Virus record (IMG/VR): IMGVR_UViG_3300035564_000051
Coordinates: 1 to 61,895 of that record
DNA from: a virus
Lineage: Duplodnaviria > Caudoviricetes
Direction: 5' to 3' (one strand)
DNA length: 61,895 nucleotides
Part shown: one piece after another, positions 2-61,895 of the stretch
Numbering within the stretch: position 1 is the stretch's first letter
Layout of the letters: each line of letters opens with the position of its first letter
Program-made: the position numbers and the translations under genes
The notes under the pieces: model-generated
What the model was told of the DNA's origin: nothing
The model's input: the letters and a program-made list of their open reading frames with translations, nothing else
Database searches by the model: none

Positions 2-823
2 ACCATGCCGGGTTATACAACTCTAACATCTGGAAATGCAAAAGTAGCAAAGGCAGATTCATCAACAATGCCCGGGTATGTCACACGCTCGCAAATCCTG
101 ACAGACTCAACCAATCGAAACGCCCTCCTTGCCCTCAAGGCTCCTTTAGCCTCTCCGACCTTTACCGGAACACCCGCGGCTCCTACGGCCTCAGTAGGAA
201 CAAATACAACCCAAATAGCTACCACGGCTTTTGTACTGGCTAACGCAGGAGCCGGTGCAACCGATTCGATCAAGGTCAAAGCCTCTGATGAAACCGACAC
301 CGGAACAGCCCTGCAAAATGATGATGATTTGAAATTCGGTATTGGAGCGAATCAGACTTGGATTGGATATGCGTTTTTGGATTGTCACGCTCAAAATGGA
401 ACTGATGGTGTTGGAACAAACACTTGCGGAATTATCTTTGCGATAAATGGCCCCAGTGGAGCTACCCTTACATTCAGTCTGTCCAATCAATACATCAATG
501 ACAATTATGGTGTTTCTGTCTATAACTATTATGAAACAAGACAGACTGCACTCAATACCAACACAAATGCACCTTTCCAAAATACCACCCCTGGCATTGC
601 CGGAAACTCTGACAAAATTGTCCACGTAACTTTTCTTGTAAAAAGTAGTAGCACAACCGGAACAATACAACTGCGCTGGTATCCTATTGCGGGAATTGAC
701 TCTGATCCTGGCCCAACAACTCAGTCTGCAACCGTTCGCGCCCGAAGCTATCTCTATGCAAGGAAGGTGGGTTCAATCATGTTTCTGATAATCTTCATAC
801 CGAAGCGACGTAAGGCGAACTAA
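2..823 (+). CDS. Tail fibre protein, C-terminal part (5' partial; probably continues the ORF starting at 61299)
   Basis: Frame is open from base 2. Contains the 32-aa repeat KADSSTMPGYVTRSQILTDSTNRNALLALK also seen at the window end, the phage tail-fibre motif KAPLASPTFTGTPAAPTASVGTNTTQIATTAFV, and a beta-rich C-terminal domain. Confidence 0.8.
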   Translation, partial: TMPGYTTLTSGNAKVAKADSSTMPGYVTRSQILTDSTNRNALLALKAPLASPTFTGTPAAPTASVGTNTTQIATTAFVLANAGAGATDSIKVKASDETDTGTALQNDDDLKFGIGANQTWIGYAFLDCHAQNGTDGVGTNTCGIIFAINGPSGATLTFSLSNQYINDNYGVSVYNYYETRQTALNTNTNAPFQNTTPGIAGNSDKIVHVTFLVKSSSTTGTIQLRWYPIAGIDSDPGPTTQSATVRARSYLYARKVGSIMFLIIFIPKRRKAN

Positions 824-1128
824 TGAAGAAACTTTTCTTCCTGTTGGCGATACCGTTGCTGGCTTGCGCCCAAGGGAAGTCTGATGAAATGGCTCCTTTG
901 TCATATTGGCGAGCACTAAAATATCAGGACACACTTGCAGTCCTGCAACATCAGCGTGACAGTCTGATTGTGCTGGCAAAAACATTCAAGTCGGCAAAGT
1001 CCAAAATCACAACACAAAGTGAAATCACCTACAAGTTCTCAGATGCAATGAAGATGATTGATTATTTGGATGCAGTCCAAGCGATTGAGCAAAAGATTGC
1101 GGTGCTGAAAAATCAACTTGCACAATGA
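823..1128 (+). CDS. Small exported protein (signal peptide, possibly lipoprotein), coiled-coil
   Basis: N-terminus MKKLFFLLAIPLLACAQ; LLAC could be a lipobox, or ACA|Q an SPase I site. Start overlaps the upstream TAA. Confidence 0.65.
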   Translation: MKKLFFLLAIPLLACAQGKSDEMAPLSYWRALKYQDTLAVLQHQRDSLIVLAKTFKSAKSKITTQSEITYKFSDAMKMIDYLDAVQAIEQKIAVLKNQLAQ

Positions 1129-7787: not shown

Positions 7788-7788
7788 T

Positions 7789-16804: not shown

Positions 16805-16845
16805 AAACTTATGAATCTTAACACGCGGCTACCAGCGGAGGCTTT

Positions 16846-17262: not shown

Positions 17263-17272
17263 GAGGATAGTC

Positions 17273-25171: not shown

Positions 25172-25176
25172 GTATT

Positions 25177-25271: not shown

Positions 25272-25287
25272 TTAAAAGGAAAGAAGG

Positions 25288-30168: not shown

Positions 30169-30715
30169 AGGAATGAGATGTAGCGTTGATGGTTGTGATG
30201 TAGCCTACCACTCTCGCGGTCTATGCCATAATCACTACCGAATGTTTTTGAAATATGGCAGGTATTTCATTAGACACGCGGTGCGCGGCCCCAACCACGG
30301 ACTTTCCCGGACTCCTGAGTACGTAAGCTGGACATGCATGAAGGGCCGATGCTATAATCGCGCCATAAAGAGCTTCAAGCATTACGGCGGTCGGGGGATA
30401 AAAGTTTGTGATCGGTGGCTGCAATCCTTCGAGAACTTTCTCGCAGACATGGGTGAGCGCCCTTCACTGAGGCACACGATTGAGCGGATAAACAATGACG
30501 GAAACTACGAGCCGAATAACTGCAAGTGGATAATAGCGGAGCATCAGGCATTGAACAGGCGAAGCACAAAGATAACCCGAAGTCAGATAGCGGACGTTGT
30601 TGACCTTATTCGATCAAAGGACTATACGCACCTAGAGATAGCGAAAATCTACGGCGTATCGGAAAGCAATATTGCCTATTACCACAAGAAATATGCGAAG
30701 GGAGCAGCGGAATGA
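30158..30715 (+). CDS. HNH homing endonuclease
   Basis: CSVDGC...LCHNHY, YGGRGIKVCDRW, HTIERINNDGNYEPNNCKW, C-terminal HTH. Confidence 0.88.
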   Translation: MQGEGMRCSVDGCDVAYHSRGLCHNHYRMFLKYGRYFIRHAVRGPNHGLSRTPEYVSWTCMKGRCYNRAIKSFKHYGGRGIKVCDRWLQSFENFLADMGERPSLRHTIERINNDGNYEPNNCKWIIAEHQALNRRSTKITRSQIADVVDLIRSKDYTHLEIAKIYGVSESNIAYYHKKYAKGAAE

Positions 30716-31338
30716 GCCGGTACTACAGAGGTCTATTCTTCAAGAGGGGATATAGTGTGCGAATCTCGCTTTTGTTCGAGTGCTCGCTCCAACCTTTGTG
30801 TTCCTACTGTTGTTTGACGGTTCCGACGGGTCAACGGGCGAAATCTCGACGCGCAACACTTGAGGAATGGAAAACCTTCATCGAGAACTTCCCCCTCAAG
30901 ATCAAAGAACTCCATCTCTGCGGTGGGGAACCTTCTTTGCTATCGTGGATGCCACGACTCGCCAACTGGCTTCTCGACAAAGGGCATCACGTAACGATCT
31001 ACACCAATCTTCACAATGTAGAAACGCTTTGCCGAATCCGTCCGTCGAAAAGGTTGATGATTATTTCCACCTATCATCATCAGGATGATGCCCTCAAGTA
31101 CACGCGTTCCTACGAGCGATTGACTGCGGCGGGTTACGAGGTAAGGGTGGGGGAAATGAACGACGGTTCTCCGGGCTGGAAGAAGGTCATGCCCTATTCC
31201 AAACTCAAGACGCTCTATCCCGATCAAAAATCTCTCCACGACATTTCCGACAGGGAGCGACAACTCATCGTTGCGCCCGATCTGACGATCTACTCGGGTT
31301 GCTGGGAGCAATACATGGACAAGGGGAGGCCACAATGA
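30712..31338 (+). CDS. Short radical SAM protein (CX5CX2C variant)
   Basis: CSLQPLCSYC, LCGGEP, IYTNL. Confidence 0.75.
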   Translation: MSRYYRGLFFKRGYSVRISLLFECSLQPLCSYCCLTVPTGQRAKSRRATLEEWKTFIENFPLKIKELHLCGGEPSLLSWMPRLANWLLDKGHHVTIYTNLHNVETLCRIRPSKRLMIISTYHHQDDALKYTRSYERLTAAGYEVRVGEMNDGSPGWKKVMPYSKLKTLYPDQKSLHDISDRERQLIVAPDLTIYSGCWEQYMDKGRPQ

Positions 31339-31958
31339 CCCGCTTCCTCGGTATTGAACTGTACGAGAAAACCAAGTTGCTCAAGCGCGGGGAATCTGTG
31401 GTCCTGATGATAACCTTCGATTGCAACCTGGACTGTTCTTTCTGTCTGATTCACCTTCCCGGCGGCAAGAGGGCATACATGGAAAGTGAAGGAATCGGCT
31501 ATTGGAAACACGCCGTGGAACTGCTTCCGGTCAAGGTCAGGGAGTTCTACATATCAGGCGGAGAATTGACCCTGCCGCAATTTTCTTGGCTGCCAGAATT
31601 TCTCACATGGCTCTTAGATAAAGGCTATCACGTTACACTCACAACCAATCTCTATGACATCGCGCCGATACTGAAGATTCCGAAAAGGCACAACTTCCAG
31701 ATCAGTTCGACCTTCCACCCCGAGGCTGACCTGTGGGATTTTGATAACAAGTTTTGGAAGCTGAGAAACGCTGGCTACCGGATTGAGGCAAAGGAACTCG
31801 GCAAGAAGAAACTCCTGACCTATTCAACCCTGGAGCCGATCAGAAGTAAGGAGATGCTCTACTTTGACAAACGGATGCTTCACCTATGCAGTAAAAACAG
31901 AATCTACATCGGGGAATACGAGATGTCGATTGCATGTACACCGAAGGAGGCCAAATGA
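31335..31958 (+). CDS. Short radical SAM protein
   Basis: CNLDCSFC, ISGGE, LTTNL; paralogous to the upstream gene (WLLDKG.HVT..TNL in both). Confidence 0.82.
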   Translation: MTRFLGIELYEKTKLLKRGESVVLMITFDCNLDCSFCLIHLPGGKRAYMESEGIGYWKHAVELLPVKVREFYISGGELTLPQFSWLPEFLTWLLDKGYHVTLTTNLYDIAPILKIPKRHNFQISSTFHPEADLWDFDNKFWKLRNAGYRIEAKELGKKKLLTYSTLEPIRSKEMLYFDKRMLHLCSKNRIYIGEYEMSIACTPKEAK

Positions 31959-32608
31959 GCTTCTTCGCCCGGTTCAAAATACTTCGTCTCTTGAAAAGAT
32001 TCATCTGGGTGCATCTGAACATCTGGGCCTACCCCGATACGATCGTACGAGATGCGATCCTAAAGCATGTCAAGCCCGGAACTCGGTGTATTGATGTGGG
32101 TGCTCACAGGGGGAGAATGACAGACCTGATGCTCAAATGCTGTGGCACTTCGGGAATGGTCAACGCCTTTGAACCCCTGCCGGATTTTTGCCATGCCCTA
32201 GAGGACAAATACCGTCGGACGAGGAATGTGTTTGTGTTTAACACCGCGCTTGGTGATATACCACCTAGAAGGATGCCCTCAGTAGCTTGTTTTGCTCGAA
32301 CCGAAGATCCGCTGATGTCATCATTTCATCCCGACTCGAAGTGCAAGGTTATCGAGTTCCTCACGGTCTCTGTCCGATCTCTCGACTCATACCATTTTGA
32401 AGGAATCGGCTTTATCAAGATCGACGTAGAAGGATGGGAACCGGAAGTCCTGAAGGGTGCGGAAGAGACCATCAACAAGTATCACCCCGTGATAATCGCG
32501 GAATGTTTGCCCGGTTCAAAGAATGCAAGTCCGATGATAGAGTTTTTTGAATCACACGGATATGGAACAATCCACTATCCATACGAAATCCTTGCGGTGA
32601 AGATATGA
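31955..32608 (+). CDS. FkbM-family methyltransferase
   Basis: IDVGAHRG, AFEP, FIKIDVEGWEPEVLKGA. Confidence 0.9.
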   Translation: MSFFARFKILRLLKRFIWVHLNIWAYPDTIVRDAILKHVKPGTRCIDVGAHRGRMTDLMLKCCGTSGMVNAFEPLPDFCHALEDKYRRTRNVFVFNTALGDIPPRRMPSVACFARTEDPLMSSFHPDSKCKVIEFLTVSVRSLDSYHFEGIGFIKIDVEGWEPEVLKGAEETINKYHPVIIAECLPGSKNASPMIEFFESHGYGTIHYPYEILAVKI

Positions 32609-33459
32609 TGCTGAGAGAGCGTATCCACGACAGGCTTCTTCACTCGTACAGCAATCTCGTCATGCCAAGCGGCCAGCCGGGGGGAAGGGTTCTGATTCCC
32701 TGCAATGTGGGCTACGGAGACTTGGTATTTCTGCTTCCGGTCCTGCGGGCATTAGATGGTAAAGACACCACGCTGGTTCTTGATGATACCGACAAAGCAG
32801 ACTTCTTGCGGCAGGTGGGAATCCAGAACGCATGGATATTCCCCTGGGAGCGGCTTCATGCCACAGAGTATGATACCATCATCTGCACCCATGCCCAACA
32901 GTGGACTCCGATCATCTACCAGGTGATCGACAAAAGGATTCCATGCCGGATCGGGCATATCTGGAGGGAAAAGTACTCATGGGCTTGGACTCACAAGGTT
33001 CCGTTCGTGGACGGTTGGCATGAGAGAACCAATAACGCATCGCTCTTGGAACCATTTAAGTTGAAACCGATACACAGGAAGATCGAGATAGAACCCGAGC
33101 GAGGATTCGACGTTCTCATTGCCCCAAACACAACGAGTCCCGAGAAGGATTGGGATGGTTACGATGAACTTGCAAGGAAAATATTTGCGACACCGAACAC
33201 ATTCTCGTTCACAACGATATACGAGAAACTTCCGATGAATAAGCTCTTACGGGCCATCGCCGGTGCTCGCCTTATCATTGGCAACGACTCAGGGCTCCCC
33301 AAGATTGCCGATGCAATGGGAATACCTGCGATACAGATATTCAAAGCATGTGGCTGGCAACCATCGCGTTCAGGGCTCTCTCATGGAATTGACCTTGTAG
33401 AACCAACGGTAGATGAAGTTTTCACTCGCGCACAAATAATCTTACAGGAGAAACAATGA
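32605..33459 (+). CDS. GT9-family (heptosyltransferase-like) glycosyltransferase
   Basis: GYGDLVFLLPVLRAL, EKDW, IIGNDSGLPKIADAMGIPAIQIF. Confidence 0.85.
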   Translation: MMLRERIHDRLLHSYSNLVMPSGQPGGRVLIPCNVGYGDLVFLLPVLRALDGKDTTLVLDDTDKADFLRQVGIQNAWIFPWERLHATEYDTIICTHAQQWTPIIYQVIDKRIPCRIGHIWREKYSWAWTHKVPFVDGWHERTNNASLLEPFKLKPIHRKIEIEPERGFDVLIAPNTTSPEKDWDGYDELARKIFATPNTFSFTTIYEKLPMNKLLRAIAGARLIIGNDSGLPKIADAMGIPAIQIFKACGWQPSRSGLSHGIDLVEPTVDEVFTRAQIILQEKQ

Positions 33460-49960: not shown

Positions 49961-50018
49961 TCAGTCTCAGAGCTTTCCAGTTAAAGCAAAATACATCTGA
50001 AAGGATGGTTTGTTGAAT

Positions 50019-51197
50019 ATGGCCCTTCCAGTGCCAGTAGTTTACGGTGCTCGTACAATGGATTCGTCCGTTGTCACGACCGAAAGGGTTGACTTCTCAA
50101 CGGAGTTGACCAAGGATCACGAGAGCGAAGCCGTGCTCATTACGCTCTTGAACAAAATGAAATCCCAGAAGGTCAAGACGCATGACTTCAAGTATGCCGT
50201 CCAGCGGTTTGCGCCAACCAAGTCAACGGTTGTCACTGGCGCAGCGGCGGGATCTTCTGTCGATGCAATCATCACAATCGTTTTGACAGCAGCCGAGGCA
50301 GTCTATTTCCTGCCCGAAGATGTGATCGAAATTCAGCCACACGTTGATGATGCCACGTACACCTGGCAACTCCGTGTGGTCACTTCCGACGGCTCGGCAA
50401 CGATCACAGCCCGACCGTACAATCACACGCTGTATAGCGGTGTAGTCTCCGTCGGCGATACCGTCCAGATCATCAGCTCTGCAATGGGTGAGAAGTCCGA
50501 TGGAAGAGATTCTCGTCAGACTGTGCCAACGGTCAACACGCAGTATTGCCTCTCTCAAGAGGACTACTACGATGTGACGCGAATCGTTGACGTTGACGAT
50601 CAGTACACCGGCCCCGAGCGCGCTCGTCTGCGGGAAGAGTGCCGCATAAAGCACTTGATGGACGCTGAACGTGCCGGGTTCTTCCTGAAGAAAGCCGCCG
50701 ATCCGTACACCACGGGCAGTTATCGGTATCAGCCCGATGGTCTGTACGCTCTCTTGGGCGATAACCTGCTTGAATACAGCACCGCGCTGACGGACGACAA
50801 GCTGTATGACTTCATGCTCAAGATTCACAACCCGGCGTACTCCGGTGGCATGAAGCGGATTGTTCTCTCATCCGGCCAGTTGCTCGGATGGATCAACAAG
50901 ATCGCATCTCCGAAGATCCGCATTACCCCGCGCGATTCAACCTGGGGTCCGCAGATTTCGGAAGTTCAGTTCGCAGGCAAGGTATGGAGCTTCGTTGAAG
51001 CGCCTGTTCTGTCCGCAATGCGGCCCGGAGAGGGCATTGTCATTCAGCCGATGTTCCTGAAGAAACGCGTTCACACGCCCACGGTCTATGAACAGAACGT
51101 GCAAACCCGAATTGCCAAGTACTACAAGGACGGATTCTACTCAGTGTGGGCTCCGCAATACACGCTGGTGGAAACGGGTGGAACGATTCGTCCGTAA
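50019..51197 (+). CDS. Major capsid protein (HK97 fold; SU10/DUF5309-like, with insertion domain)
   Basis: About 390 aa after the scaffold; NTQYC...YYDVT, KHLMDAERAGFF, DGLYA pattern. Confidence 0.78.
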   Translation: MALPVPVVYGARTMDSSVVTTERVDFSTELTKDHESEAVLITLLNKMKSQKVKTHDFKYAVQRFAPTKSTVVTGAAAGSSVDAIITIVLTAAEAVYFLPEDVIEIQPHVDDATYTWQLRVVTSDGSATITARPYNHTLYSGVVSVGDTVQIISSAMGEKSDGRDSRQTVPTVNTQYCLSQEDYYDVTRIVDVDDQYTGPERARLREECRIKHLMDAERAGFFLKKAADPYTTGSYRYQPDGLYALLGDNLLEYSTALTDDKLYDFMLKIHNPAYSGGMKRIVLSSGQLLGWINKIASPKIRITPRDSTWGPQISEVQFAGKVWSFVEAPVLSAMRPGEGIVIQPMFLKKRVHTPTVYEQNVQTRIAKYYKDGFYSVWAPQYTLVETGGTIRP

Positions 51198-51671: not shown

Positions 51672-52244
51672 ATGAAACACATTATGAAACTCACAGCTCT
51701 CCTTGTCGTGCTTGCCTTGTTTGCGACCCCTGTGTTGATGGGTCAGGCGCAGTACAGGGTAGGCTACAAGATTATGACGGCAAAGGATGGGTGGACCTAC
51801 TACCGCTTCAGCGGGACGTTCATCTCGGCTACCGATACATTCTACTGCCCGGTGGCATCGCCCTTGCCAATCGGAATCAATGACACGATCAAGTTCGTTG
51901 TCAACCTTCAGACCGCGGCCTACTCTGCCACGCAGGACTCCATCAAGGTCTCGCTGGATTACCAGTGGTCGAGCTCTGACTTCTTGACTGCATCAGGTCA
52001 AACCGAAGCGGCTGTTGGCACGAGAGCATCACTCTTGTACGACTCGACTGCACAGGCCAATACTCTCTATAAGCTAAAGACAGCGGTTGTCGGCCATGAT
52101 GTTCTCAATGGTGGCTCTGCTCAACCCTTCAGCAGATTTAGGGTCCGGGGGGTGGCCGCTGCCACCGGCGGAGTTGCCAACCGAATTGGGGTTAAGTGGA
52201 TTCTCGATGTCATAGTCCCGAAGAAGTTGCCAGTGGTCCAGTAG
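51672..52244 (+). CDS. Signal-peptide-bearing beta-rich protein, capsid-decoration position
   Basis: MKHIMKLTALLVVLALFATPVLMGQAQ; D-S/T motifs DTF, DTI, DSI, DST. Confidence 0.7.
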   Translation: MKHIMKLTALLVVLALFATPVLMGQAQYRVGYKIMTAKDGWTYYRFSGTFISATDTFYCPVASPLPIGINDTIKFVVNLQTAAYSATQDSIKVSLDYQWSSSDFLTASGQTEAAVGTRASLLYDSTAQANTLYKLKTAVVGHDVLNGGSAQPFSRFRVRGVAAATGGVANRIGVKWILDVIVPKKLPVVQ

Positions 52245-52260
52245 CAGAAACTCAGGTGAT

Positions 52261-52334
52261 GGGCCCGGTCGAAACAGTTAGACTAACTCCTTCTTCTGAT
52301 TGTTTCTGTGCCCTGACCGGGCCTGTCTTCTTTT
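52261..52334 (+). terminator. Long bulged hairpin with U-rich tail closing the capsid unit
   Basis: GGGCCCGGTC/GACCGGGCCT and GAAACAGTTAGA/TCTGATTGTTTC, then TCTTCTTTT. Confidence 0.6.
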
Positions 52335-52352
52335 GTCGAATGAGGAAACACC

Positions 52353-53237
52353 ATGAATAGCGATTATCTCGTACGAGCCATAGCATCACATAGCATCTGG
52401 AAAAAACTGGGGAGCACTCCCGAGAAAGACCGGATCTACCTTGCCGGAACCTTCGCTCAGAAGGAGGTTCTGAACGAACTGAAATTGCTCGAACAGGTAG
52501 GCAATCTGGTGCTCGTCTCCGGTCAGGAGCGCTATCAGTTTCCACCCATTGCAATCACGGGCGGAACGGCTACGACTCCGATTCAACTTACAATCACCGG
52601 ACATCTATTCAACACAGGTGATACGGTGGTTATTACCGGGGTAAGTGGTCTTACGGGCGCAAACGGCAAATGGTCTACGATCACGAAGGTCGATGCAAAT
52701 ACAATTTCCCTTGACGGTTCAATCGGTGGAGGCACTTACACCGCAGCCACAGGCATAGCCTACCACATCCTGAGTGCAGCGGGCGATGTCAAGATGATTC
52801 GCAAAACCGGAAGCGCGACAGGACGCATACCGGAGATTTCACTCGTACAGTCAGAAACCGAGCGCGCTGATTTCGGTTCTCTGAACTCGGATGCCTCACA
52901 AGTAGGCGGTCACTATGTCATCTACGACGACCCTTTGATCCTCGGCTTTCGGGGCACTCCAGGAGCGACGATTCCAACAGAACTAACGATCTATCGCATT
53001 CCACTTCCATCGGAAGACATCAGCGCGACGGTTAATCCGATCATACCCGCGCAGTATGACAAACTCCTGTACAGGGCAACGCTCTACCATGTCTTTGACT
53101 TGATGGACGATCCCGCCTCAGAAGAAGTTCAAGCTCTTGCACTTTCAAAGTATGAGCAGGAGAAAGAGCGCGTCCGCAGCACGATGGGCGATAACAGACT
53201 TATTAAGCAAGAAGATTCAGACACACTTATCCTCTAG
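52353..53237 (+). CDS. Head-tail adaptor-like protein with inserted FCCH-like beta domain
   Basis: Helical termini (IPAQYDKLLYRA...YEQEK) around ITGHLFNTGDTVVITGVSG...ITKVDANTISLDG. Confidence 0.6.
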   Translation: MNSDYLVRAIASHSIWKKLGSTPEKDRIYLAGTFAQKEVLNELKLLEQVGNLVLVSGQERYQFPPIAITGGTATTPIQLTITGHLFNTGDTVVITGVSGLTGANGKWSTITKVDANTISLDGSIGGGTYTAATGIAYHILSAAGDVKMIRKTGSATGRIPEISLVQSETERADFGSLNSDASQVGGHYVIYDDPLILGFRGTPGATIPTELTIYRIPLPSEDISATVNPIIPAQYDKLLYRATLYHVFDLMDDPASEEVQALALSKYEQEKERVRSTMGDNRLIKQEDSDTLIL

Positions 53238-53251
53238 AGGAGGAATGCAAC

Positions 53252-53824
53252 ATGAAAAAGATTCTCTGTATCTCAATCCTGCTTCTGGTCATCTCGACCA
53301 TAGCCTTCTCTCAGGTCTATTGGAACCGCGTCGAGTTCCGGCGAGTCCCAAACCTGACCGCCTATACCATCGGTGATGTTGTCGGTCCAGACACGACCTC
53401 GGGAGCCTCCAATCTTTTCGCTCTTACAGGTCTCTCGCCGTCAGGTGGAGGCTATATCACAGGAATCAGACTGACAGCCGACACAGCGGTTGTCGCAACC
53501 GCAAGGTTCCGAATCTACTGGTACGCCGACACCGTGGGAAATGCCCGTCCACTGGACAACGCCGCATTTGTCCGAAGCATGAAAGAGGATAGTCTGATCT
53601 TCGCCTATACCGACCTCAATCTGCTCTCAATAGCTGGCACGGGCTCGGGCACTACGACCGCAGCGATTGATACAACCTTGAGTACGCCGATTCCTGTTCG
53701 CACGGTCAAGTTGACGACAGCTAAAATGTCTCAGACCTTCTTTGCCCGTATCGTTGCTATTGCTGCATACACACCGGCATTCAAAGGTAGGTTTCGGCTC
53801 GAAGTGTTTGTCAAACCAAACTAG
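53252..53824 (+). CDS. Signal-peptide-bearing beta-rich protein
   Basis: MKKILCISILLLVISTIAFS|Q; 5 of 8 Asp lie in D-(S/T)-(T/A/V/L). Confidence 0.72.
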   Translation: MKKILCISILLLVISTIAFSQVYWNRVEFRRVPNLTAYTIGDVVGPDTTSGASNLFALTGLSPSGGGYITGIRLTADTAVVATARFRIYWYADTVGNARPLDNAAFVRSMKEDSLIFAYTDLNLLSIAGTGSGTTTAAIDTTLSTPIPVRTVKLTTAKMSQTFFARIVAIAAYTPAFKGRFRLEVFVKPN

Positions 53825-53838
53825 GGGTCAGCAAAGCG

Positions 53839-54720
53839 ATGACAACCTATCTCAATAATCTTATCCTTGCCGCTGCAAGAAAGCTGAAGGACGAACGCAC
53901 CTCTGCCGCCTCATCGGATGATACGGGTCATGTGTATTCCTCTGCTCTCTTGACCGAGTATGCCAACCGCGCCGTGAGGGACTATCTGGCCGCCGAACTG
54001 AACAGTCTGGGGATAAAAGCCTTCACCCGTAAATATCCTGAGTACGTCAAACAGTCAAGCGCTCTCTCGCTTTCAAGTGGTTCAGTGGCTAAACCCGCGG
54101 ACGCGCTATTCGTCTTTGACCTGGTGCTGAGTGATCTGTCATTAAGGTTCGATCCCATTTCTCAGGAGAATGTTGCCCAGGCTCTCGCCGGTGAAGCAGG
54201 GCTCGGCGCTCCAAGCGCAACTCATCCAGGGTTCTATGAAGAATCTGGGAATATCAAGACCCTCGGAGTAACCTCGGGAACCGTGCTGGCGCGCTACATC
54301 AGTGTTCACCCCGATCTTGCAGTCATCACCACAGCCACAAGCGTTGGGATAATCTACACCACAGCCGCGAATCTCACATGGACAGCCGCAACGAAACTCT
54401 TGACCGTCGATGGTGAACTTCATCTTTTCGACACCATAGATCCCACCAACCAGATAATTCAGTTCTGGAAAAGCGGTGTGGTCTATACCGGACGAGTTTC
54501 GAGCTATCACATAACAATCGGTGGAGACGCAGAGGTTTATGTTCAGGGCGAGGCTCTCCCGGCAACTGATATTACTCCATCGAGCCTTCTCGGGCTTGCT
54601 ATAAGCGGACACGGCCCGGAAGCTGATGACTTGAAGTTGAACGAGCAATGGCACGGCGAAATCTTAGAGCGCATGGTTCAAATGGGCCAAGCCGATGCAG
54701 AACGATTAACGCAGCAATAG
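53839..54720 (+). CDS. Putative tail ring/adaptor protein
   Basis: Helical N- and C-termini (LTEYANRA; LNEQWHGEILE) around a beta core. No signal peptide. Confidence 0.55.
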   Translation: MTTYLNNLILAAARKLKDERTSAASSDDTGHVYSSALLTEYANRAVRDYLAAELNSLGIKAFTRKYPEYVKQSSALSLSSGSVAKPADALFVFDLVLSDLSLRFDPISQENVAQALAGEAGLGAPSATHPGFYEESGNIKTLGVTSGTVLARYISVHPDLAVITTATSVGIIYTTAANLTWTAATKLLTVDGELHLFDTIDPTNQIIQFWKSGVVYTGRVSSYHITIGGDAEVYVQGEALPATDITPSSLLGLAISGHGPEADDLKLNEQWHGEILERMVQMGQADAERLTQQ

Positions 54721-54739
54721 CCCAGGAGGGTGATTCACA

Positions 54740-55681
54740 ATGCGTAACTACACAACCTTTCTCGAACTCGATACCGAATGCCAGCGCGCCGCGCAGATCA
54801 ACGCCGACCAAATTCAATCGGCAGTCAGGCAGAGGATCATCAACCATGCCATCTACCAGACCTACGGCCTATTGGATGGAGCGAATCATCCATGGTGGAG
54901 GCGCATCATCAGCCTTGCAAGCTCTACTGACCTTGAGTTTCTGGCTGATTCAACGGTAAACAGTGGACTGCTGACCGCTTTGGATGCAAGCGCTCACACC
55001 ATCACCCGCAGCAATGGCGCTTTTGCCGCAGGTCAGTTGCTTGACATCGTGCTTGTCTTACGGTCAACCGGAGCCCGCGTTGCCCAGTATAAAGCGTTGG
55101 TGGTCTCGGGAACATCCACCTGCATCTACTCAGTCATTGGTTCTGTGACGGGAACAGAGACAACCTATGCTTCGGCAACGCATTGCTTATATGTGACGGG
55201 CCTCAAGAAATTCTCTGCCACCAGTTACGACCTCTCGTCATGGTACATCAAGGACATCATCAGGGTCTTCGACAACGCAGGCACGGGTGGAAAAGAACGC
55301 TCATTCCGGCAGATAATGGACTCGAAAATCTTCGGCTCTGTCTGGGACGATCCTTTCCATGTCAATGAGGTAGCTGTCTATCACGGCGGCGACACGCTGT
55401 ATTTTGATGTCGGCTCATCGGCTTCGGCGCTCTCACTGGTTCAGGCAGAAGTCACCATCAAGCCGGGAATCTACACCGATGCGACAAAGAACACACCGGT
55501 TGATTATCCGCCTGACGAAAATGGAACGGTCAAAGACCTCGTTGTTGCTGAATACCTGAGAGAGACCGGGGGAACACCGTCAGACAGCTTGCAGAAGTCG
55601 TTGGCTCTGATTCAGAAGCGCACCGAGCAGGCACAAGCCGACCGGATGAAAACAATGGAACTCCGGGGGAAATCCGAGTAG
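54740..55681 (+). CDS. Putative tail ring/adaptor protein
   Basis: Same architecture (RIINHAI ... VDYPPDE). No signal peptide. Confidence 0.55.
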   Translation: MRNYTTFLELDTECQRAAQINADQIQSAVRQRIINHAIYQTYGLLDGANHPWWRRIISLASSTDLEFLADSTVNSGLLTALDASAHTITRSNGAFAAGQLLDIVLVLRSTGARVAQYKALVVSGTSTCIYSVIGSVTGTETTYASATHCLYVTGLKKFSATSYDLSSWYIKDIIRVFDNAGTGGKERSFRQIMDSKIFGSVWDDPFHVNEVAVYHGGDTLYFDVGSSASALSLVQAEVTIKPGIYTDATKNTPVDYPPDENGTVKDLVVAEYLRETGGTPSDSLQKSLALIQKRTEQAQADRMKTMELRGKSE

Positions 55682-58600
55682 ATGCCTTCTCCACTCCATA
55701 ATGCGTTTCTGGGTCACAAACCAGACGTAGCAAACCCGCCTTTTAACTCCGCGAAGGCAGGACAGAATTACTCCATCCATCGTCACCGCGACCGTGAAAA
55801 CAAAATCGCTGGCTGGATTGAGCAATCAGACGGGTACGCGAAGAAGTTCTCCGCACTCCCGGCGAATGACTTGGCTATCAAGAAGATTGCGAACATCTCC
55901 TATCAAGATATTTACAATCTCTGGATTCCAGACCACGGCGGCCAGAATGTCACCGTTGTAGTAGCCACCTACACCAAAACAGGCTATGAACTCGCAACTC
56001 TTACCGGAACCGCTTGGGCCGTTGCTGGTGGCAGTCTCACCAAAGTCACCGGCACAGGAACCAAGTTTCTAACCGAGACCGCACCGGGTTCAAACATACT
56101 TCTTGATTCAACGCAGAAGGTAGTTCTCTCGGTCACAAGCGATACCGAACTGTATGTCACTGTGGCCTTCGGTGGAGCCGCAAGCGGAACGTCTCTTGCC
56201 GGTTCAGCTGTCATTAACCGTTTTGGAATCTTTATCAGACCCTATTGGAACGGCTCGACATGGATTGATGAATGGTTTGAAACAACCGAGATGATGATAT
56301 TCGAGATTGACAGTCTCGGAACGGGGGATGGTTCTGCGTTCTTAAATTCTTCCGGGTGGGTTGTTGATGGTCTTGGGTTCTGGTCCGGCAGTTTTGCCGC
56401 TGGCTGGACTCACTCAGCTCTTGGGGGCGCGGGAAGTACCGATCCACTCACACAAACGACCGCCGCGGTGAATGCAACATACTACGACATCTCCTGGACA
56501 GTCACAGGTCGAACCAATGGCTCATTCACGATTGCCTTTGGTGGTAATACGATCTCGGGCTTGACCGCAACCGGCACTCAGAGAATCAAATCATCTTCCA
56601 CGGGAAATCTTGTCATTACCCCGACATCGAACTTTGATGGGAAAATTGTCTTCTCCATCATCACCGAAGGCAATGTGAAGAAAATATATCTGGATGACAT
56701 CACCTCATCCAAGTATCACTTCCCAACCATTGACTCTGGCGCAACAGTATTCAAAACCGACTACTTCAAGAACTGGACGATTGTTGACCGGGATTTCCAC
56801 GGCGGCGACAATTACGAACTGGTAGCCGCGTCCGGTTACGACGGCTCTCAGTACTATCTTGGGCTGATTCACCCCAACAACGAATTCTATTCAGCTTGGA
56901 CCGCAGGCGACAAGTTGCTCGTCTATCGCTCGCTGCTGGAACTAACCTCAACGGGAACTGAAAAGCAACTCCCATCATCCATAGACTCATTCATCTACGG
57001 ACTCTTATCTGAGGCGCGCCTTACAACGGGAAACGATACAACCGATGTGGTGCTCTCACTGGCAAGCAAGACAACCGCATTCACCACGATCAGCACTCAC
57101 ACCTCAGATCCCTATGTAAAAACCATTGACGAGGTAATCGCAGGACCGGGAGTATTGGACATCTGGAAGTATGCTGCCGTCATCTCCTTTGAACCCACCC
57201 CGATTCCAGATGCAGCCGGACTCCCTGCGGGAACGTATTATCTCAAACATTCAATCGTGATGGATGATGGAAGCGAGACCGCGCTGTACGATTCACCCTC
57301 GGAAGTTGGCGGCTCTCCCGCAGATTGGTCGGGCACGAACTTCCTGACGCTGACAGAAGCATCAAACATCAAGATATATGCTCATCGCAGTTGGGGAACA
57401 CTTCCGGCTAGAGGCCGATTCCTGAGATGCTACGTCAGTGATGACAATGTGTATTTCTACAAGATGAAAGACTTCGATCTGAGAAGCTCTACACTCTTCG
57501 ACGCTGCTGCAATGCGCGGCATATCGCTTCTTGGTGGACAACACTACTTTGCGGTTGGTTACGCCGGATACCTCTTGACAGACCTTGATTGGTCCGCCGC
57601 CACGGGCGATTCCGGCATAGAAGCAACCGCGCAAATTGGAAGAAAGATTGATGATACAGGAGTTATTCAATTCAAAGCCGCCACAGTTGCAGGCCGCATC
57701 TGCTATGCTATCGGTGTAAGAAAAGATGCCACGGTCTCACCGAACACAATCTTTGCCAGCCTCCAGACGGGCGATGGCGCACCGGCGCGGGATGTTTTCG
57801 GACTCGTTGCCAACAACATGATTGACCTGGAATATGGTGACGGGGATGAACTGGCTGGCATCTACTCAAAGGGTGATGTAGTTCTCGCATGGAAACGCCA
57901 AAGGCTCATGTCGGTTCGTGAGGGCTCGGATGCTAACGGAAAAGTAGTCTATCTCGCGGACACGATCACTCAGGCCGATGGACTATGCAGCAGAAGGTCA
58001 ATAGTTGGTTTCGAGGATGTCATCTACTGGGCAGGTTACAACGGGATCTACTCGTACTCATCTCAGGGTGTACTCACACTCAACCGTGATTGGCTCGAAG
58101 AATGGAAAGCGGTCGATGTCGCGTACAAGGAAACAGCAGTAGCCAGCTTCGATCGTACCAACCGGCAGTATAGGATCGCCTACAATGGTCTTGAACGCTT
58201 GCTTGACATTGACACTGGAGAATGGACCCCCGGAGTTCCAACCGATCAACCGGCGGTATTTGCCGCCAACCAACGGCTCGGCACGGTGGATTTCCTCTCG
58301 GGCAGTCTGATTCAAACCCTCGGCTCCGGAACACGGCATGACGGTGTAAACTTCAGCATGGAGTATTTCAATAACGATTTTCTTGCACATCAACTAGACC
58401 CTAAGGGTCGCGCAACTCAGAATTGGGATGTCTTGCTATATGATGTGCGCGTTGCATACAACTCTAGTGTTGCGCTCACGCTGACTCTTTACCGGGACGG
58501 CATTGCACAAAGCCCCGTCGCGGGCGCAGCAGGGAACGGCTCAGTCACAATCAAAGCAGGGAAATCATTCCGTTGCAAAAAGTTTGGCCTTAAGATTATA

Positions 58601-58975
58601 GCCACAACGACCGCTGATAACCAGGTAGTCCAAATAAAAGAGATTCAACCGCGCTATGATCTAATTCCAACCGGAGTCTCTACACCAGCCTTTGCAAGTG
58701 AAGGCACTGCCGCAGCCATAGATCAGCGTCCAATGGCACTGGCCGATATAAGATCAGGCAAATACAACCTGACTGCCGGAGTGCTCACGACGGTTCCGTA
58801 CTCATATCCGTTCTCAGTTGCAGTAGGAACCGACTACCAACTCAAAGCCGATGTGTACAACAATGCTGGCGAGTGGATCATGTCCGCCGAAGCATCAAAT
58901 CAAACCCGAAATGGATTCGACATCACAAGCCCCGAGGATGGGTATGTTCGCTATATCGCCGCGTCAAATCAGTAA
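55682..58975 (+). CDS. Tail nozzle / tubular protein B-like (beta-propeller) with inserted domains
   Basis: 1097 aa; DGLCSRRSIVGFEDVIYWAGYNGIYSY propeller pattern; podovirus position. Confidence 0.65.
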   Translation: MPSPLHNAFLGHKPDVANPPFNSAKAGQNYSIHRHRDRENKIAGWIEQSDGYAKKFSALPANDLAIKKIANISYQDIYNLWIPDHGGQNVTVVVATYTKTGYELATLTGTAWAVAGGSLTKVTGTGTKFLTETAPGSNILLDSTQKVVLSVTSDTELYVTVAFGGAASGTSLAGSAVINRFGIFIRPYWNGSTWIDEWFETTEMMIFEIDSLGTGDGSAFLNSSGWVVDGLGFWSGSFAAGWTHSALGGAGSTDPLTQTTAAVNATYYDISWTVTGRTNGSFTIAFGGNTISGLTATGTQRIKSSSTGNLVITPTSNFDGKIVFSIITEGNVKKIYLDDITSSKYHFPTIDSGATVFKTDYFKNWTIVDRDFHGGDNYELVAASGYDGSQYYLGLIHPNNEFYSAWTAGDKLLVYRSLLELTSTGTEKQLPSSIDSFIYGLLSEARLTTGNDTTDVVLSLASKTTAFTTISTHTSDPYVKTIDEVIAGPGVLDIWKYAAVISFEPTPIPDAAGLPAGTYYLKHSIVMDDGSETALYDSPSEVGGSPADWSGTNFLTLTEASNIKIYAHRSWGTLPARGRFLRCYVSDDNVYFYKMKDFDLRSSTLFDAAAMRGISLLGGQHYFAVGYAGYLLTDLDWSAATGDSGIEATAQIGRKIDDTGVIQFKAATVAGRICYAIGVRKDATVSPNTIFASLQTGDGAPARDVFGLVANNMIDLEYGDGDELAGIYSKGDVVLAWKRQRLMSVREGSDANGKVVYLADTITQADGLCSRRSIVGFEDVIYWAGYNGIYSYSSQGVLTLNRDWLEEWKAVDVAYKETAVASFDRTNRQYRIAYNGLERLLDIDTGEWTPGVPTDQPAVFAANQRLGTVDFLSGSLIQTLGSGTRHDGVNFSMEYFNNDFLAHQLDPKGRATQNWDVLLYDVRVAYNSSVALTLTLYRDGIAQSPVAGAAGNGSVTIKAGKSFRCKKFGLKIIATTTADNQVVQIKEIQPRYDLIPTGVSTPAFASEGTAAAIDQRPMALADIRSGKYNLTAGVLTTVPYSYPFSVAVGTDYQLKADVYNNAGEWIMSAEASNQTRNGFDITSPEDGYVRYIAASNQ

Positions 58976-60038
58976 GGTTCTCATACTCTCGATTTTTCTG
59001 CCGCTGATGGTACTGGCTCAGAGATCAGTCACCATTCGCGTTGATACTTTGCGTCCATACCTGAACGGAAGTATCACATTCGTCCCGCCCTTGACTGGAG
59101 GCTACTGGTCCCGCACAGGTGGAAAGCTCCAACCCCTGTATTCCAGCGATACACTCTGGATGTCGTTCGCAAAACTCGATTCAATCAAGGTTAGAATTGC
59201 CTACCTCGATTCACTCTGGCTTGTGAGCACCAACGGAACGAACAAAGTTCTTCTCCAGTACACGGGAACGAACAACGGGTCTGTGATTATTCGGGACAGG
59301 GGAACCCCGGACTTCAAAGACACGATGATGACCTCAAGCAAGCTGCCCGCGTTCTTGAAGGGTCTCTTAAGTGGTAACTGGGCAGACTGGGCAAGTGGAG
59401 GTGGAGGCTATGGAAGCTATCAGGCATGGGGAACGGCAGGATTCGATACAACCAAGTTGAGAAACCCCTCGAACAATACAGTAGTCAGTATTGTCAATTC
59501 CACTTCCACATCCGATACAACGATCAACATTCTTGCGCTCGGTGGAGGCGCAAGCAATATCGGAGTAGTTGGAGTCATGGCCGACGAAACCCGAACCGAC
59601 ACAGCTCTTGTTGCCGACACCTATCTCATAGCGACGATGGCAGGAACAACAAGCCATTCATACGCGTACGGGGGAGTGTACGCGGGATATATCGACCTGT
59701 TTGTAGAAAACCCGTACACGCCGACAGGGATCGGTATTGGTTTCACCTTGCCCGACCCCGCGTACACCGTGATGAACGTGTATGCAGACTACTTCTATAC
59801 GATGGGCGACTCCGCCGTTTATCGCACCACCCCGATCACGACTGTCGTTAGTGATGCGAAAACGAACCTAACATGGACGGACGACTCACACTACTATCGC
59901 TATGTCCGATTGAATTGGTTCCTCGACAATCGCTACGGTTACTCCGGCCAACTCAAATTCCTTTGGGCTGCGCCGCCCAGTGGCACAACAACTAAAGTCC
60001 TTGCGGCAACAACCCTCGTAGGATACCGCCTCCAATGA
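58944..60038 (+). CDS. Signal-peptide-bearing fibre/spike-like protein
   Basis: GAGG + ATG at 58944; MFAISPRQISKVLILSIFLPLMVLA|Q; nine D-(S/T)-(L/I/M/T/A) motifs; C-terminal domain similar to 2..823. Confidence 0.68.
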   Translation: MFAISPRQISKVLILSIFLPLMVLAQRSVTIRVDTLRPYLNGSITFVPPLTGGYWSRTGGKLQPLYSSDTLWMSFAKLDSIKVRIAYLDSLWLVSTNGTNKVLLQYTGTNNGSVIIRDRGTPDFKDTMMTSSKLPAFLKGLLSGNWADWASGGGGYGSYQAWGTAGFDTTKLRNPSNNTVVSIVNSTSTSDTTINILALGGGASNIGVVGVMADETRTDTALVADTYLIATMAGTTSHSYAYGGVYAGYIDLFVENPYTPTGIGIGFTLPDPAYTVMNVYADYFYTMGDSAVYRTTPITTVVSDAKTNLTWTDDSHYYRYVRLNWFLDNRYGYSGQLKFLWAAPPSGTTTKVLAATTLVGYRLQ

Positions 60039-60838
60039 AAAAACTACTTTTCATATTACTCGTAGCGATCCCACTTCAGGCTCAAGAGTTTGCCCTGAGG
60101 ATGGGAAAGGACGTAGAAACAAAAACCGCCGCTCCAATAGTCGCGGACACTTTCGACTCTGGCGTTCTTCCAGAAAATTCGACTTGGGTTGTTCAGTACG
60201 AACTTATTTTCAGACTGTGGGAGGGCAAAGGTGAGTTTTGGTGGAACCGGAACTTTGGCCCCCCTATATGGCAAAATTGGGATGATTGCCCCATTGATGG
60301 CCCCGGTGGAACTCGCTACGACTCAGTGTACAATCTCTACGGGGGTGAATGGTTTGAACGGGTTGATGTTGCGTTTCAATTTCCAGAAGGGTCGACGCTC
60401 AAGGGTCAATTCAACTATTTGTCCCATGATGAAATTTTCGACACGACGGTTGCCGATTGGGTACCCGGTGACTACCAATGGCAATGGTTGTGGATTGGTG
60501 GTGGCGACTGCTACTGGGTTTTCGTTCCCGGTTACGCAACCACGTACAGGAAGGTCAACCCCTGGCCGTACTTTGAGGAAAACAAGAAGCTGGTCGGACT
60601 AACAAACTCCGTGGGCTATCAAGACATCGTGAACGGTCGAAGTTACGAGTGCGACTTCTTTCATTCGTACCGCGGTCTTGACACTAACTATGTAAGATTG
60701 AAAATGAGTTTCATTTTAAGCGTCGGCGGTACAGCGGGACACCTCTACTTTCTTTGGTCGCCGATAAAGAATGGCGGAGAAGCCGTTTGGGTATCTCTCA
60801 AACGCGGTTCAACTCTTTGGATGAAGAGGATAAGCTAG
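60035..60838 (+). CDS. Signal-peptide-bearing Trp-rich fibre-tip-like protein
   Basis: MKKLLFILLVAIPLQA|Q; C-terminal AGHLYFLW...KRGSTLWMKRI. Confidence 0.68.
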   Translation: MKKLLFILLVAIPLQAQEFALRMGKDVETKTAAPIVADTFDSGVLPENSTWVVQYELIFRLWEGKGEFWWNRNFGPPIWQNWDDCPIDGPGGTRYDSVYNLYGGEWFERVDVAFQFPEGSTLKGQFNYLSHDEIFDTTVADWVPGDYQWQWLWIGGGDCYWVFVPGYATTYRKVNPWPYFEENKKLVGLTNSVGYQDIVNGRSYECDFFHSYRGLDTNYVRLKMSFILSVGGTAGHLYFLWSPIKNGGEAVWVSLKRGSTLWMKRIS

Positions 60839-61302
60839 TGCTTAATCGTCTCAAAAAATTTGAATTTGAACTAACCCGAATGCTCGCCTATGGGCGCGAG
60901 AACATGGATCTTCGGCCCGTACTTACGAGCCTGGTCAAAATGCTCGGCGAGGAAGTAGACTATATCGAGAAGAATGTTACATCACAGGTCACTCCTGCCC
61001 CGGCATCAGGCGGAACGGTGATTATCAATGGAACCACCGTAGTCACTTCCGTAGGCGCTGCTCCTGTAGGAGTAATTGCGATCATCAATCAGGCTGTTGT
61101 CTCTGGAGCAAATACAATCACCTTTGCCTCACCGCTCATCAGCGCGGTCTATGGTGGCTTCTTGGTGCTGTCAGATTCAGAAGGCACATTGATCGACAGC
61201 GCGGAACTAAGAATGCGCTCTACCGGCATGACAGCCAATCAGTTCATCTACACCGCGCCATCAGCCGGACACCTGTACGGATTTGCGGTAGTCGCCACAT
61301 GA
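60838..61302 (+). CDS. Putative tail accessory protein
   Basis: GTG overlaps the upstream TAG; C-terminal beta domain resembles the end of the nozzle protein. No signal peptide. Confidence 0.5.
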   Translation: MLNRLKKFEFELTRMLAYGRENMDLRPVLTSLVKMLGEEVDYIEKNVTSQVTPAPASGGTVIINGTTVVTSVGAAPVGVIAIINQAVVSGANTITFASPLISAVYGGFLVLSDSEGTLIDSAELRMRSTGMTANQFIYTAPSAGHLYGFAVVAT

Positions 61303-61895
61303 GAAAGCTATTCTACATACTGATGATGCTTCCCTTGATTGCTCTCTCGCAGTCAACCCAGAAGCAGGCATTTCAAGAAGTGAAGGTTGACACCTTAAGA
61401 CCCAATCACTACGGACCCTCTTGGGGAATTGTCATTGCATGGCACGATACTGTCTCTGTGAAGATATTCAAGGACTCCATTCTCTTCGGGAAGGTCAGGA
61501 TTGGCTCAAGCGGTTCTTTGATCGACTCTGCAATCGTCCAAGCTGATACACTTCTGTTCTGGTCAGGGGGAAGCAAATACAAAGCTTTCAAGAACGGCAC
61601 TGGAAGCGGCTCGTCATTTGTTGCCAAAGCCGATAGCTCTCTGATGCCGGGGTACGTGACAAGAACGCAAATCGCAACTGATTCTACCAACAGAAACACT
61701 CTACTTGCACTTAAGGTTGCAAAGTCAGACTCGTCAGCTATGCCGGGTTATGTCACACGCTCGCAAATCCTAACAGACTCAACCAATCGAAACGCTTTAT
61801 TGGCCTTGAAAGTAGCGAAGTCTGATAGCAGCGCAATGCCCGGATATGCGACGCGTACAATGATTCAAACTGATTCCACGAACAGAAATGTTCTG
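61299..61895 (+). CDS. Signal-peptide-bearing tail fibre, N-terminal part (3' partial; not in ORF track)
   Basis: ATGA overlap; MRKLFYILMMLPLIALS|QST...; open for 199 codons to the window end, running into the 32-aa repeats. Confidence 0.8.
   Translation, partial: MRKLFYILMMLPLIALSQSTQKQAFQEVKVDTLRPNHYGPSWGIVIAWHDTVSVKIFKDSILFGKVRIGSSGSLIDSAIVQADTLLFWSGGSKYKAFKNGTGSGSSFVAKADSSLMPGYVTRTQIATDSTNRNTLLALKVAKSDSSAMPGYVTRSQILTDSTNRNALLALKVAKSDSSAMPGYATRTMIQTDSTNRNVL
61620..61895 (+). repeat. Imperfect 96-bp tandem repeat (about 3 units; further units at 1-140)
   Basis: The MPGY ATG recurs at 61644, 61740 and 61836; unit VAK(A/S)DSSxMPGYxTRxxIxTDSTNRNxLLALK. Confidence 0.93.

Follow-up and report, generated by a model that had tools for sequence, protein, structure and literature searches.

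Signal peptides and dense O-glycosylation sequons in late genes of an uncultivated podovirus-like phage suggest protein maturation outside the cytoplasm

The general O-glycosylation system of the Bacteroidota modifies proteins at the motif D-(S/T)-(A/I/L/V/M/T), hereafter the sequon. As the available portion of a review sets out (PMC12871550), this motif is enriched in the non-cytoplasmic proteins of nearly all Bacteroidota families, occupancy of its sites in such proteins is almost complete, a motif introduced by engineering is glycosylated, and the transferase is still undiscovered; that portion does not mention phages. In the accessible part of another report (PMC5837995), Bacteroidetes are said to follow a Q-rule, by which signal peptide cleavage exposes an N-terminal Gln, and Ignavibacterium album also has a high value (77%). 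Here, we analyzed IMG/VR record IMGVR_UViG_3300035564_000051, the whole of which (61,895 bp) is called the window below. Six of its late genes, lying among those for the capsid, adaptor, and nozzle, encode proteins with putative signal peptides followed by Gln and, taken together, with a marked excess of the sequon. This suggests that late fibre-, spike-, and decoration-like proteins of this phage mature outside the cytoplasm. We consider it likely that, given a host with the respective systems, they would be exported by Sec, cleaved, O-glycosylated, and given an N-terminal pyroglutamate.

Several coliphages encode Sec-dependent proteins among or beside their tail genes, namely T5 Llp, Cor, lambda Lom and Bor, and T4 RI, and the position of the last of our six genes, directly after a fibre gene, matches the Llp/Cor arrangement. 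Each of those coliphage genes is a small accessory gene that stands singly and has no homology to fibres or spikes, whereas the present set comprises five to six conserved genes, some of them large, with fibre-, spike-, and carbohydrate-binding-like modules. Glycosylated mycobacteriophage virions share with our proposal the idea of a glycan-coated tailed-phage particle, but in that case capsid and tail-tube proteins are modified in the cytoplasm by glycosyltransferases of the phage, whereas we propose Sec export and the periplasmic system of the host. Podovirus modules of the SU10/kuravirus and P22 types have the same capsid, adaptor, and portal families; here, in contrast, signal-bearing genes are interleaved with the core genes. 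The Bacteroidota O-glycosylation substrates, as the available portion of PMC12871550 describes them, resemble the phage set in their predicted non-cytoplasmic site and in carrying the same motif above composition. The phage proteins differ in being phage-encoded, in lying inside a virion module, and in having about twice the sequon density of the signal-bearing open reading frames (ORFs) of a metagenome-assembled genome (MAG). Phages of Porphyromonas gingivalis (proposed Nixviridae, PMC10367356) likewise have genes of unassigned function with a predicted cleavage that exposes Gln. These phages are temperate, however, and in the accessible part of that report the genes are discussed as potential outer-membrane modifiers, with no tie made to sequons, fibre homology, or a head-tail module.

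The Q-rule, the Bacteroidota sequon, and the presence of Sec signals on phage genes are each known. Our literature search, conducted partly by titles and abstract openings, returned no description of core late fibre- or spike-homologous genes with host-specific signals and dense conserved sequons across a lineage. Loading of such proteins onto particles would be categorically new.

Signal peptides and sequons in the late module

The six signal-bearing genes (SP1 to SP6) and three neighbors are arranged as follows.

SP1, 51672..52244, + strand: 190-residue putative exported protein with a beta-jelly-roll, lying between the adaptor gene and the genes on the capsid side
SP2, 53252..53824, + strand: 190-residue putative exported jelly-roll protein, directly after the adaptor gene
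SP3, 58944..60038, + strand: 364-residue putative exported protein; its start overlaps the nozzle stop by 32 nt
SP4, 60035..60838, + strand: 267-residue putative exported Trp/Tyr-rich protein; 4-nt overlap with SP3
SP5, N-terminal part, 61299..61895, + strand: fibre-like, with a signal, a 100-residue N-domain, and 32-residue tandem repeats; runs off the contig end
SP5, C-terminal part, 2..823, + strand, frame 2: further copies of the repeat together with a tail-fibre collar motif and a distal domain
SP6, 823..1128, + strand: 101-residue helical putative exported protein or lipoprotein, directly after the fibre gene
Major capsid protein (context), 50010..51197, + strand: SU10_MCP; no signal
Head-to-tail adaptor (context), 52353..53237, + strand: SU10_adaptor; no signal
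Nozzle (context), 55682..58975, + strand: 1097 residues, named by position, with only a weak PHROG match; no signal

We screened the 73 ORFs of the window with a Kyte-Doolittle heuristic, not SignalP, calling a signal where a 10-residue window had a mean hydropathy of at least 2.2, at least one Lys or Arg before it, and no Asp or Glu inside. Seven ORFs were flagged (823, 24650, 51672, 53252, 58944, 60035, and 61299), the seventh, 24650, belonging to another module. The capsid protein (50010), the adaptor (52353), 53839, 54740, and the nozzle (55682) have no signal by this heuristic. All six late signals combine a basic n-region, a hydrophobic core, small residues at −3 and −1 (read from the sequence), and Gln at +1. 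Cleavage is predicted at MG↓Q or QA↓Q in 51672, FS↓Q in 53252, LA↓Q in 58944, QA↓Q in 60035, LS↓Q in 61299, and CA↓Q in 823. Across the window and its relatives, a small residue followed by Gln, read by eye, was found in 19 of 19 signal-bearing late ORFs outside the SP1 family; most SP1-family members have A↓T instead. Because Gln at +1 after small −3 and −1 residues in six of six proteins is otherwise hard to explain, we infer processing by signal peptidase I. An earlier note on this DNA had assigned signal peptides to these six genes and none to their virion neighbors. That division is borne out, with all six among the seven flagged ORFs, and so is its export reading, in that the small −3 and −1 residues and Gln at +1 make the proteins look like substrates of Sec and signal peptidase I in a Q-rule host.

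We then counted sequons (D[ST][AILVMT]), taking expectations and P values for each protein from 1000 shuffles and Poisson P values for pooled sets. The excess was clear in 53252 (5 sequons versus 0.83 expected), 58944 (9 versus 1.97), and 61299 (8 versus 0.97), each with P 0.001, and smaller in 51672 (3 versus 0.72, P 0.03), 823 (2 versus 0.35, P 0.05), and 60035 (2 versus 0.53, P 0.09). Pooled, the six proteins hold 29 sequons versus 5.2 expected (ratio 5.5, P 5e-13), whereas all 67 proteins without a signal hold 39 versus 40.2, and the 15 late proteins without a signal hold 19 versus 21.2. Individual proteins of the latter kind were flat as well: 4 versus 5.54 in the nozzle, 0 versus 1.3 in 8252, 2 versus 1.77 in the capsid protein, and 2 versus 1.36 in the adaptor. 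Eight control motifs (the reversed motif; E, N, G, K, or Q in place of D; D[AG]x; and D[ST] followed by a non-permitted residue) gave ratios of 0 to 1.58, none of them significant. The enrichment that the earlier note had anticipated in signal-bearing over other proteins therefore withstands shuffled controls, and its counts by eye were exact: 11 of 11 Asp residues in 61299 are followed by Ser or Thr, giving 8 full sequons; 5 of 8 Asp residues in 53252 lie in sequons; 58944 has nine sites and the nozzle four.

Several trivial sources of the bias were excluded. The shuffles and the flat control motifs rule out an artefact of Ser/Thr composition. In 61299, 6 of the 11 Asp residues fall within about three copies of a 96-bp tandem repeat, so that only 5 sequons are independent, although all 5 Asp residues of the N-terminal domain lie in sequons; with 61299 left out, the remaining five proteins still hold 21 sequons versus 4.2 expected (P 5e-9), which rules out a repeat artefact. 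A general feature of beta-rich proteins is ruled out by the lack of bias in the nozzle, 8252, 53839, 54740, and the signal-bearing ORFs of a Myxococcota MAG. Paralogy does not account for it either, as BLASTP gave no match among the six proteins or between them and the signal-less fibre candidates described below. A wrong start for 58944 was also considered and rejected, given that its homologue P0002 keeps the same signal; a public gene call, P0001 (292 residues), starts later and omits it.

The genes are tightly packed. SP1 to SP4 lie −32 to +46 nt from the preceding gene and have a GC content of 0.49–0.54, like their neighbors; SP5 overlaps the preceding ORF by 4 nt, and SP6 begins at the final base of the fibre ORF. 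Intergenic gaps in the late block range from −85 to +108 nt, and promoter-like and terminator-like sites there do not exceed shuffled expectation. GC content is lower in the C-terminal part of SP5 (0.46) and in SP6 (0.43, the lowest of the block). The hallmarks of morons (an own promoter or terminator, deviant composition, sporadic distribution) are not found in SP1 to SP4, which are syntenic in relatives.

The C-terminal part of SP5 matches tail-fibre PHROGs (best E 1.6e-12). For SP1 to SP4, neither PHROGs nor Pfam gave a family match, and SP6 has none either; SP6 carries a lipobox-like LLAC, and its CA↓Q also fits signal peptidase I. Neither a type IX C-terminal sorting domain nor any Pfam family was detected in the six proteins at E ≤ 0.1, a search that a divergent domain could escape. 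SP3 and SP5 have in common a six-residue motif, VDTLRP, a few residues after the cleavage site, and it is present also in relatives. The structural model of SP1 (predicted local distance difference test score 85.3) has an N-terminal helix followed by a beta-jelly-roll. Its Foldseek matches are weak (template modeling score at most about 0.5) and include Eph ligand-binding domains, carbohydrate-binding modules, and phage fibre tips. In an exhaustive structural alignment, the top match was the periplasmic lysozyme inhibitor PliG (Z 9.3, root mean square deviation 2.7 over 110 residues), tied with many beta-sandwiches at Z 7–9, among them carbohydrate-binding modules, a phage cement protein (Z 7.6), and a tailed-virus turret protein (Z 7.4). 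SP2 falls in virus-only ESM Atlas clusters and has a jelly-roll-like model. The label "decoration," which the earlier note gave to 51672 and 53252, goes back only to gene position and a generic beta-sandwich fold.

Conservation in relatives and the probable host

An alignment of capsid proteins yielded four related IMG/VR contigs and further metagenome fragments, in which the longest-ORF starts were used. The late region, the capsid protein, and SP1 have no DNA or protein match among 50,697 GenBank phage records, and a search with the capsid alignment found no prophage relatives in GTDB species genomes. The gene order of the relatives runs from a scaffold-like gene through the capsid gene, an ORF of 106–159 residues, SP1, the adaptor gene, and one to three signal-bearing ORFs to two conserved ORFs (about 290 and 315 residues), the nozzle gene, and more signal-bearing ORFs. 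In most relatives with downstream sequence, the small ORF comes between the capsid gene and SP1, which is the second gene downstream, and the nozzle gene 55682 is syntenic with ORFs of 801–976 residues.

The relatives keep both the signals and the sequons, as the earlier note's reading would lead one to expect. In the four contigs, 12 flagged ORFs hold 53 sequons versus 12.0 expected, and 92 unflagged ORFs hold 60 versus 61.1; the signal threshold was stricter here, and two ORFs of contig L004 with visible signals were counted as unflagged. A profile search with SP1 collected 83 representatives at 50% clustering, with 279 sequons versus 57.7 expected. The signal heuristic was passed by 71 of the 83, most others being N-terminally truncated or having an acidic residue. 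In a 79-row alignment of this family, the mean column identity is 20%, and two sequons, through their D and S/T, account for four of the seven nearly invariant columns. The four SP1 sequon positions are full in 64, 52, 57, and 65 of the 79 rows. Their third residue varies among V, A, L, I, and T, with some F, and this variation therefore fits selection on the motif rather than on particular residues.

Homologues of SP2 in L001 and L004 retain its signal peptide as well as the sequon D77-T78-A79. P0002, the sole SP3 homologue (40% identity), keeps the signal and at least six of the nine sequons. The SP4 homologue in L003 keeps the signal, two invariant Cys residues, and two D-T positions. For the SP5 N-domain, the homologue P0086 is 67% identical, and a search for wider homologues found only the L001 copy. 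In L002, the SP2 slot is occupied by an ORF of at least 850 residues with a Q-rule signal and a pectate-lyase-like, tailspike-type domain (8.6e-16). The complete relative G003 has no Mtd_N domain and no 8252 homologue; its largest fibre-like ORF (1151 residues, spanning a 155-bp terminal repeat) carries a Q-rule signal and 15 sequons versus 6.8 expected. In another relative, L012, two Q-rule signal ORFs of 226 and 192 residues (3549–4818; 6 and 3 sequons versus 0.98 and 0.44) lie upstream of the scaffold-like gene, so the signal-bearing set is not confined to the tail end of the module. L001 also contains, after a run of Sec-signal ORFs, an ORF of at least 449 residues (13487–14833) with a twin-arginine-type N terminus (RRQF..), a feature that would add a further route of export to this module.

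The host is probably a Q-rule bacterium of the Bacteroidota or the wider Fibrobacteres-Chlorobi-Bacteroidetes (FCB) group and possibly Ignavibacteria-like, an assignment made only from the Q-rule, the sequon bias, GC content, and the homologues of one gene. We applied the same counts to MAGs, again with longest-ORF starts. In 400 kb of an Ignavibacteriota MAG with a GC content of 0.507, like the phage, there are 60 flagged ORFs with 336 sequons versus 122 expected (ratio 2.75), and 42 of the 60 have a small residue followed by Gln. The flagged ORFs of the Myxococcota control hold 18 sequons versus 19.6, with a small residue and Gln in 3 of 15. A third MAG (G009, L121-L140), titled "uncultured Alphaproteobacteria bacterium," gave 303 sequons versus 141.7 (ratio 2.14) and a small residue with Gln in 53 of 81; this label may be wrong, as the genome behaves like that of an FCB-group organism. 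The phage set is about twice as sequon-dense as the flagged ORFs of the Ignavibacteriota MAG (5.5 versus 2.75) and within the range of that genome, where 8 of the 60 flagged ORFs have at least three sites at a ratio of at least 4.

The homologues of one phage gene, the GT-C gene at 25818-27260, give weak support to an FCB-group host. Among the 79 matches listed (L022-L100), cellular homologues at 30–40% identity carry the following labels.

Ignavibacteria-type, 16; Kapaibacterium, 2; Bacteroidetes/Bacteroidota, 12; Chlorobi-type, 3; Zixiibacteriota, 11
Eisenbacteria, 5; Krumholzibacteriia, 6; Planctomycetota-type, 8; Leptospira/Spirochaetota, 5; other, 11

Shine-Dalgarno-like GGAG or AGGA precedes 39 of the 73 starts in the window, with a G peak at −11 to −8; such motifs were found before 17 of 29 long ATG ORFs versus 14% of random positions. 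The Bacteroidetes −7 promoter motif TANNTTTG is not enriched in the window (27 found versus 23 expected).

The record, its ends, and the glycan-related cluster

The contig is the genome of an uncultivated podovirus-like phage with an SU10-type capsid and adaptor and a P22-type portal, as judged from family matches of the capsid protein (50010, Pfam SU10_MCP, 1.2e-9), the portal (45316, P22_portal family, 1.8e-11), the adaptor (52353, Pfam SU10_adaptor, 4.4e-7), and, below the Pfam cut-off, the large terminase (43227, weak match, 1.9e-4). Almost all genes are on the + strand. We found no tRNA genes and no exact terminal repeat in the window. BLASTP revealed a common 32-residue repeat in 61299, which is open at its 3' end, and the frame-2 ORF 2..823; we therefore regard the two as one fibre gene, interrupted within a tandem repeat where the contig ends, its two halves being offset in frame. 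The repeat of 61299 spans 61644-61822, and both contig ends (61644-61895 and 1-130) lie inside the 96-bp tandem repeat, with the halves out of frame. The assembly thus does not fix the true repeat number in the genome and probably collapsed at this repeat.

Two further regions were noted. At 13528-15867, a 779-residue ORF combines a short nucleotide-metabolism PHROG match with a LAGLIDADG_3 domain (3.6e-6) and may be an enzyme gene interrupted by an intein or homing endonuclease. At 16364-18054, a 146-residue ORF is followed by three small ORFs (16846, 17243, and 17641) with one to three predicted membrane helices; none of these ORFs has a PHROG match, and the region is a possible lysis cassette.

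The window also holds a glycan-related gene cluster and two fibre candidates without signals.

24650-33459: glycan-related gene cluster
25818-27260: multi-pass membrane protein that resembles the GT-C arabinofuranosyltransferase AftB over its first 100 residues (NCBIfam 6.7e-15, PDB 9dlf 6.8e-13)
27550: GT4 glycosyltransferase; 29156: class-I methyltransferase; 30712 and 31299: paralogous radical-SAM-like ORFs
31934: FkbM methyltransferase; 32605: GT9-like ORF
7705-8238: 177-residue ORF with Mtd_N (Pfam 1.2e-14) and many tail-fibre/spike PHROG matches; no signal, 1 sequon
8252-9787: 511-residue Ser/Thr-rich ORF after 7705; no signal, 0 sequons

A GT-C enzyme predicted to face the periplasm is suggestive beside sequon-dense, putatively exported proteins. 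Four related records, including a complete one, lack the GT-C gene, so the glycan cluster does not always accompany the signal-bearing set. The fibre candidates 7705 and 8252 are both missing from the four related records searched.

Particle loading or an envelope role

We tentatively favor, at somewhat less than even confidence, the reading that the signal-bearing proteins are loaded onto phage particles as distal parts; such loading seems slightly likelier than no presence on the virion. The first part of this course is strongly supported by sequence: the six genes, set among those for the capsid, adaptor, and nozzle, encode proteins that would leave the cytoplasm via Sec, be cut by signal peptidase I so as to expose an N-terminal Gln, and be modified by the host's general O-glycosylation at their dense conserved D-(S/T)-(A/I/L/V/M/T) sites. 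Built of modules resembling fibres, spikes, and carbohydrate-binding beta-sandwiches, the proteins would constitute the distal parts of the phage. They would fold in the periplasm and gain pyroglutamate and glycans there. Finally, they would join finished heads and tails once the inner membrane is breached late in infection, with the outer membrane still enclosing the compartments. SP6 could alternatively be a fibre chaperone or a receptor-blocking lipoprotein.

Particle loading is favored by the tail-fibre homology of the 61299/2..823 gene together with the signal-bearing, pectate-lyase-like tailspike-type ORF of L002, and by the overlapping or tightly packed core position of the genes among head and tail genes. 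The VDTLRP motif common to SP3 and SP5 would suit exchangeable fibres at one docking site. Moreover, sequon density and positional conservation exceed the apparent need of a short-lived periplasmic protein, and G003 lacks both signal-less fibre candidates of the window, its largest fibre-like ORF itself carrying a signal. In classical phages, decoration proteins and fibres can be added to finished particles in vitro, and loading after a breach of the inner membrane is therefore physically conceivable.

A number of points weigh against this proposal. Tailed phages assemble in the cytoplasm, and to our knowledge every documented Sec-exported protein of a tailed phage is absent from the virion, being a lysis regulator, spanin, exclusion protein, or moron. 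We know of no experimental demonstration of this O-glycosylation outside the class Bacteroidia, and Shine-Dalgarno-like motifs, which are atypical for Bacteroidia and their phages, are common in the window and argue against a classical Bacteroidia host. All signal calls come from our own heuristic rather than SignalP, and the sequon excess of 60035 and 823 is weak or not significant for each taken singly. The VDTLRP motif itself contains a sequon, which would be odd for a docking surface, and the fold matches of the SP1 model are generic and leave its function unsettled. Since 7705 and 8252 are fibre candidates without signals, a complete virion could exist without the signal-bearing set.

We hold a different fate to be a serious possibility, although again short of even: the proteins may be exported and glycosylated and yet never reach the virion, acting instead on the envelope of the infected cell. 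There, they could mask or destroy a receptor polysaccharide, which would exclude superinfection and keep progeny off debris, or they could aid or time the disruption of the envelope, with SP6 as a Cor/Llp-like blocker paired with the fibre cassette. The signal and sequon evidence applies to such a role in the same way, and 7705 and 8252 supply signal-less fibre candidates. T5 Llp, Cor, and lambda Lom and Bor adjoin tail genes, SP6 is placed as Llp and Cor are, and the C-terminal part of SP5 forms with SP6 a cassette of lower GC content. The top structural match of SP1, although tied with others, is a periplasmic inhibitor, and Q-rule genes of P. gingivalis phages are discussed as outer-membrane modifiers in the accessible part of PMC10367356. 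Yet five to six large, conserved, packed or overlapping genes would be a heavy cost for exclusion. SP1 is core to the lineage, with 83 family representatives and the same position in relatives, and G003 lacks the alternative fibres. A sequon density about twice that of the Ignavibacteriota MAG, with positions kept over deep divergence, would also be unexpected if the proteins were needed only in the latent period. Further sorting after Sec, which would take the proteins before lysis to the surface of the cell, into outer-membrane vesicles, or into the medium to serve as free depolymerases, binders, or decoys, appears unlikely. The conserved post-cleavage motif of SP3, SP5, and relatives could act in sorting, one relative encodes a signal-bearing ORF of pectate-lyase-like type, and SP6 has its lipobox-like LLAC; but Pfam detected neither a type IX C-terminal nor any other domain in the six proteins at E ≤ 0.1, their sequences have no visible C-terminal aromatic beta-barrel signature, and no secretion genes were recognized in the part of the genome scanned against family libraries.

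Even less probable, in our judgment, is that the hydrophobic N termini are uncleaved membrane anchors or virion-internal segments and that the D-S/T-x bias is a structural feature of beta-sandwich folds. Many hydrophobic regions in the SP1 family are 18–22 residues long, as in anchors, and the sequons of the SP1 model lie at loop-to-strand transitions, where a structural role is conceivable. Against this, Gln at +1 after small −3 and −1 residues in all six proteins is hard to explain without signal peptidase I. The bias occurs in four unrelated families and not in signal-less beta-rich proteins (nozzle, 4 versus 5.5; 8252, 0 versus 1.3) or in the signal-bearing ORFs of the Myxococcota control. 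The reversed motif and its E and N variants are flat, and the third sequon position varies within the permitted set.

It is possible, though we would not put it at even chances, that this lineage divides virion morphogenesis between two compartments. Heads, portal, adaptor, and nozzle would be assembled in the cytoplasm, whereas fibres, spikes, and the capsid-side beta-sandwich protein would be exported, trimmed to pyroglutamate, glycosylated by the host in the periplasm, and docked after the inner-membrane breach; the phage cluster of GT-C, glycosyltransferase, and methyltransferase genes might tailor the glycan. Tailed-phage assembly would then no longer be wholly cytoplasmic, and virions could be glycosylated without cytoplasmic enzymes of the phage. 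The released virion would carry the host's own extracytoplasmic protein armor, which would bear on how mucus, proteases, and immune systems see such phages. If the proteins instead stay off the particle, they would form a large and novel class of effectors that act on the envelope, are directed at receptors, and consist of receptor-binding modules. Gln at +1 together with sequon density would provide a cheap sequence marker that flags extracytoplasmic phage proteins and assigns uncultivated phages to Q-rule hosts.

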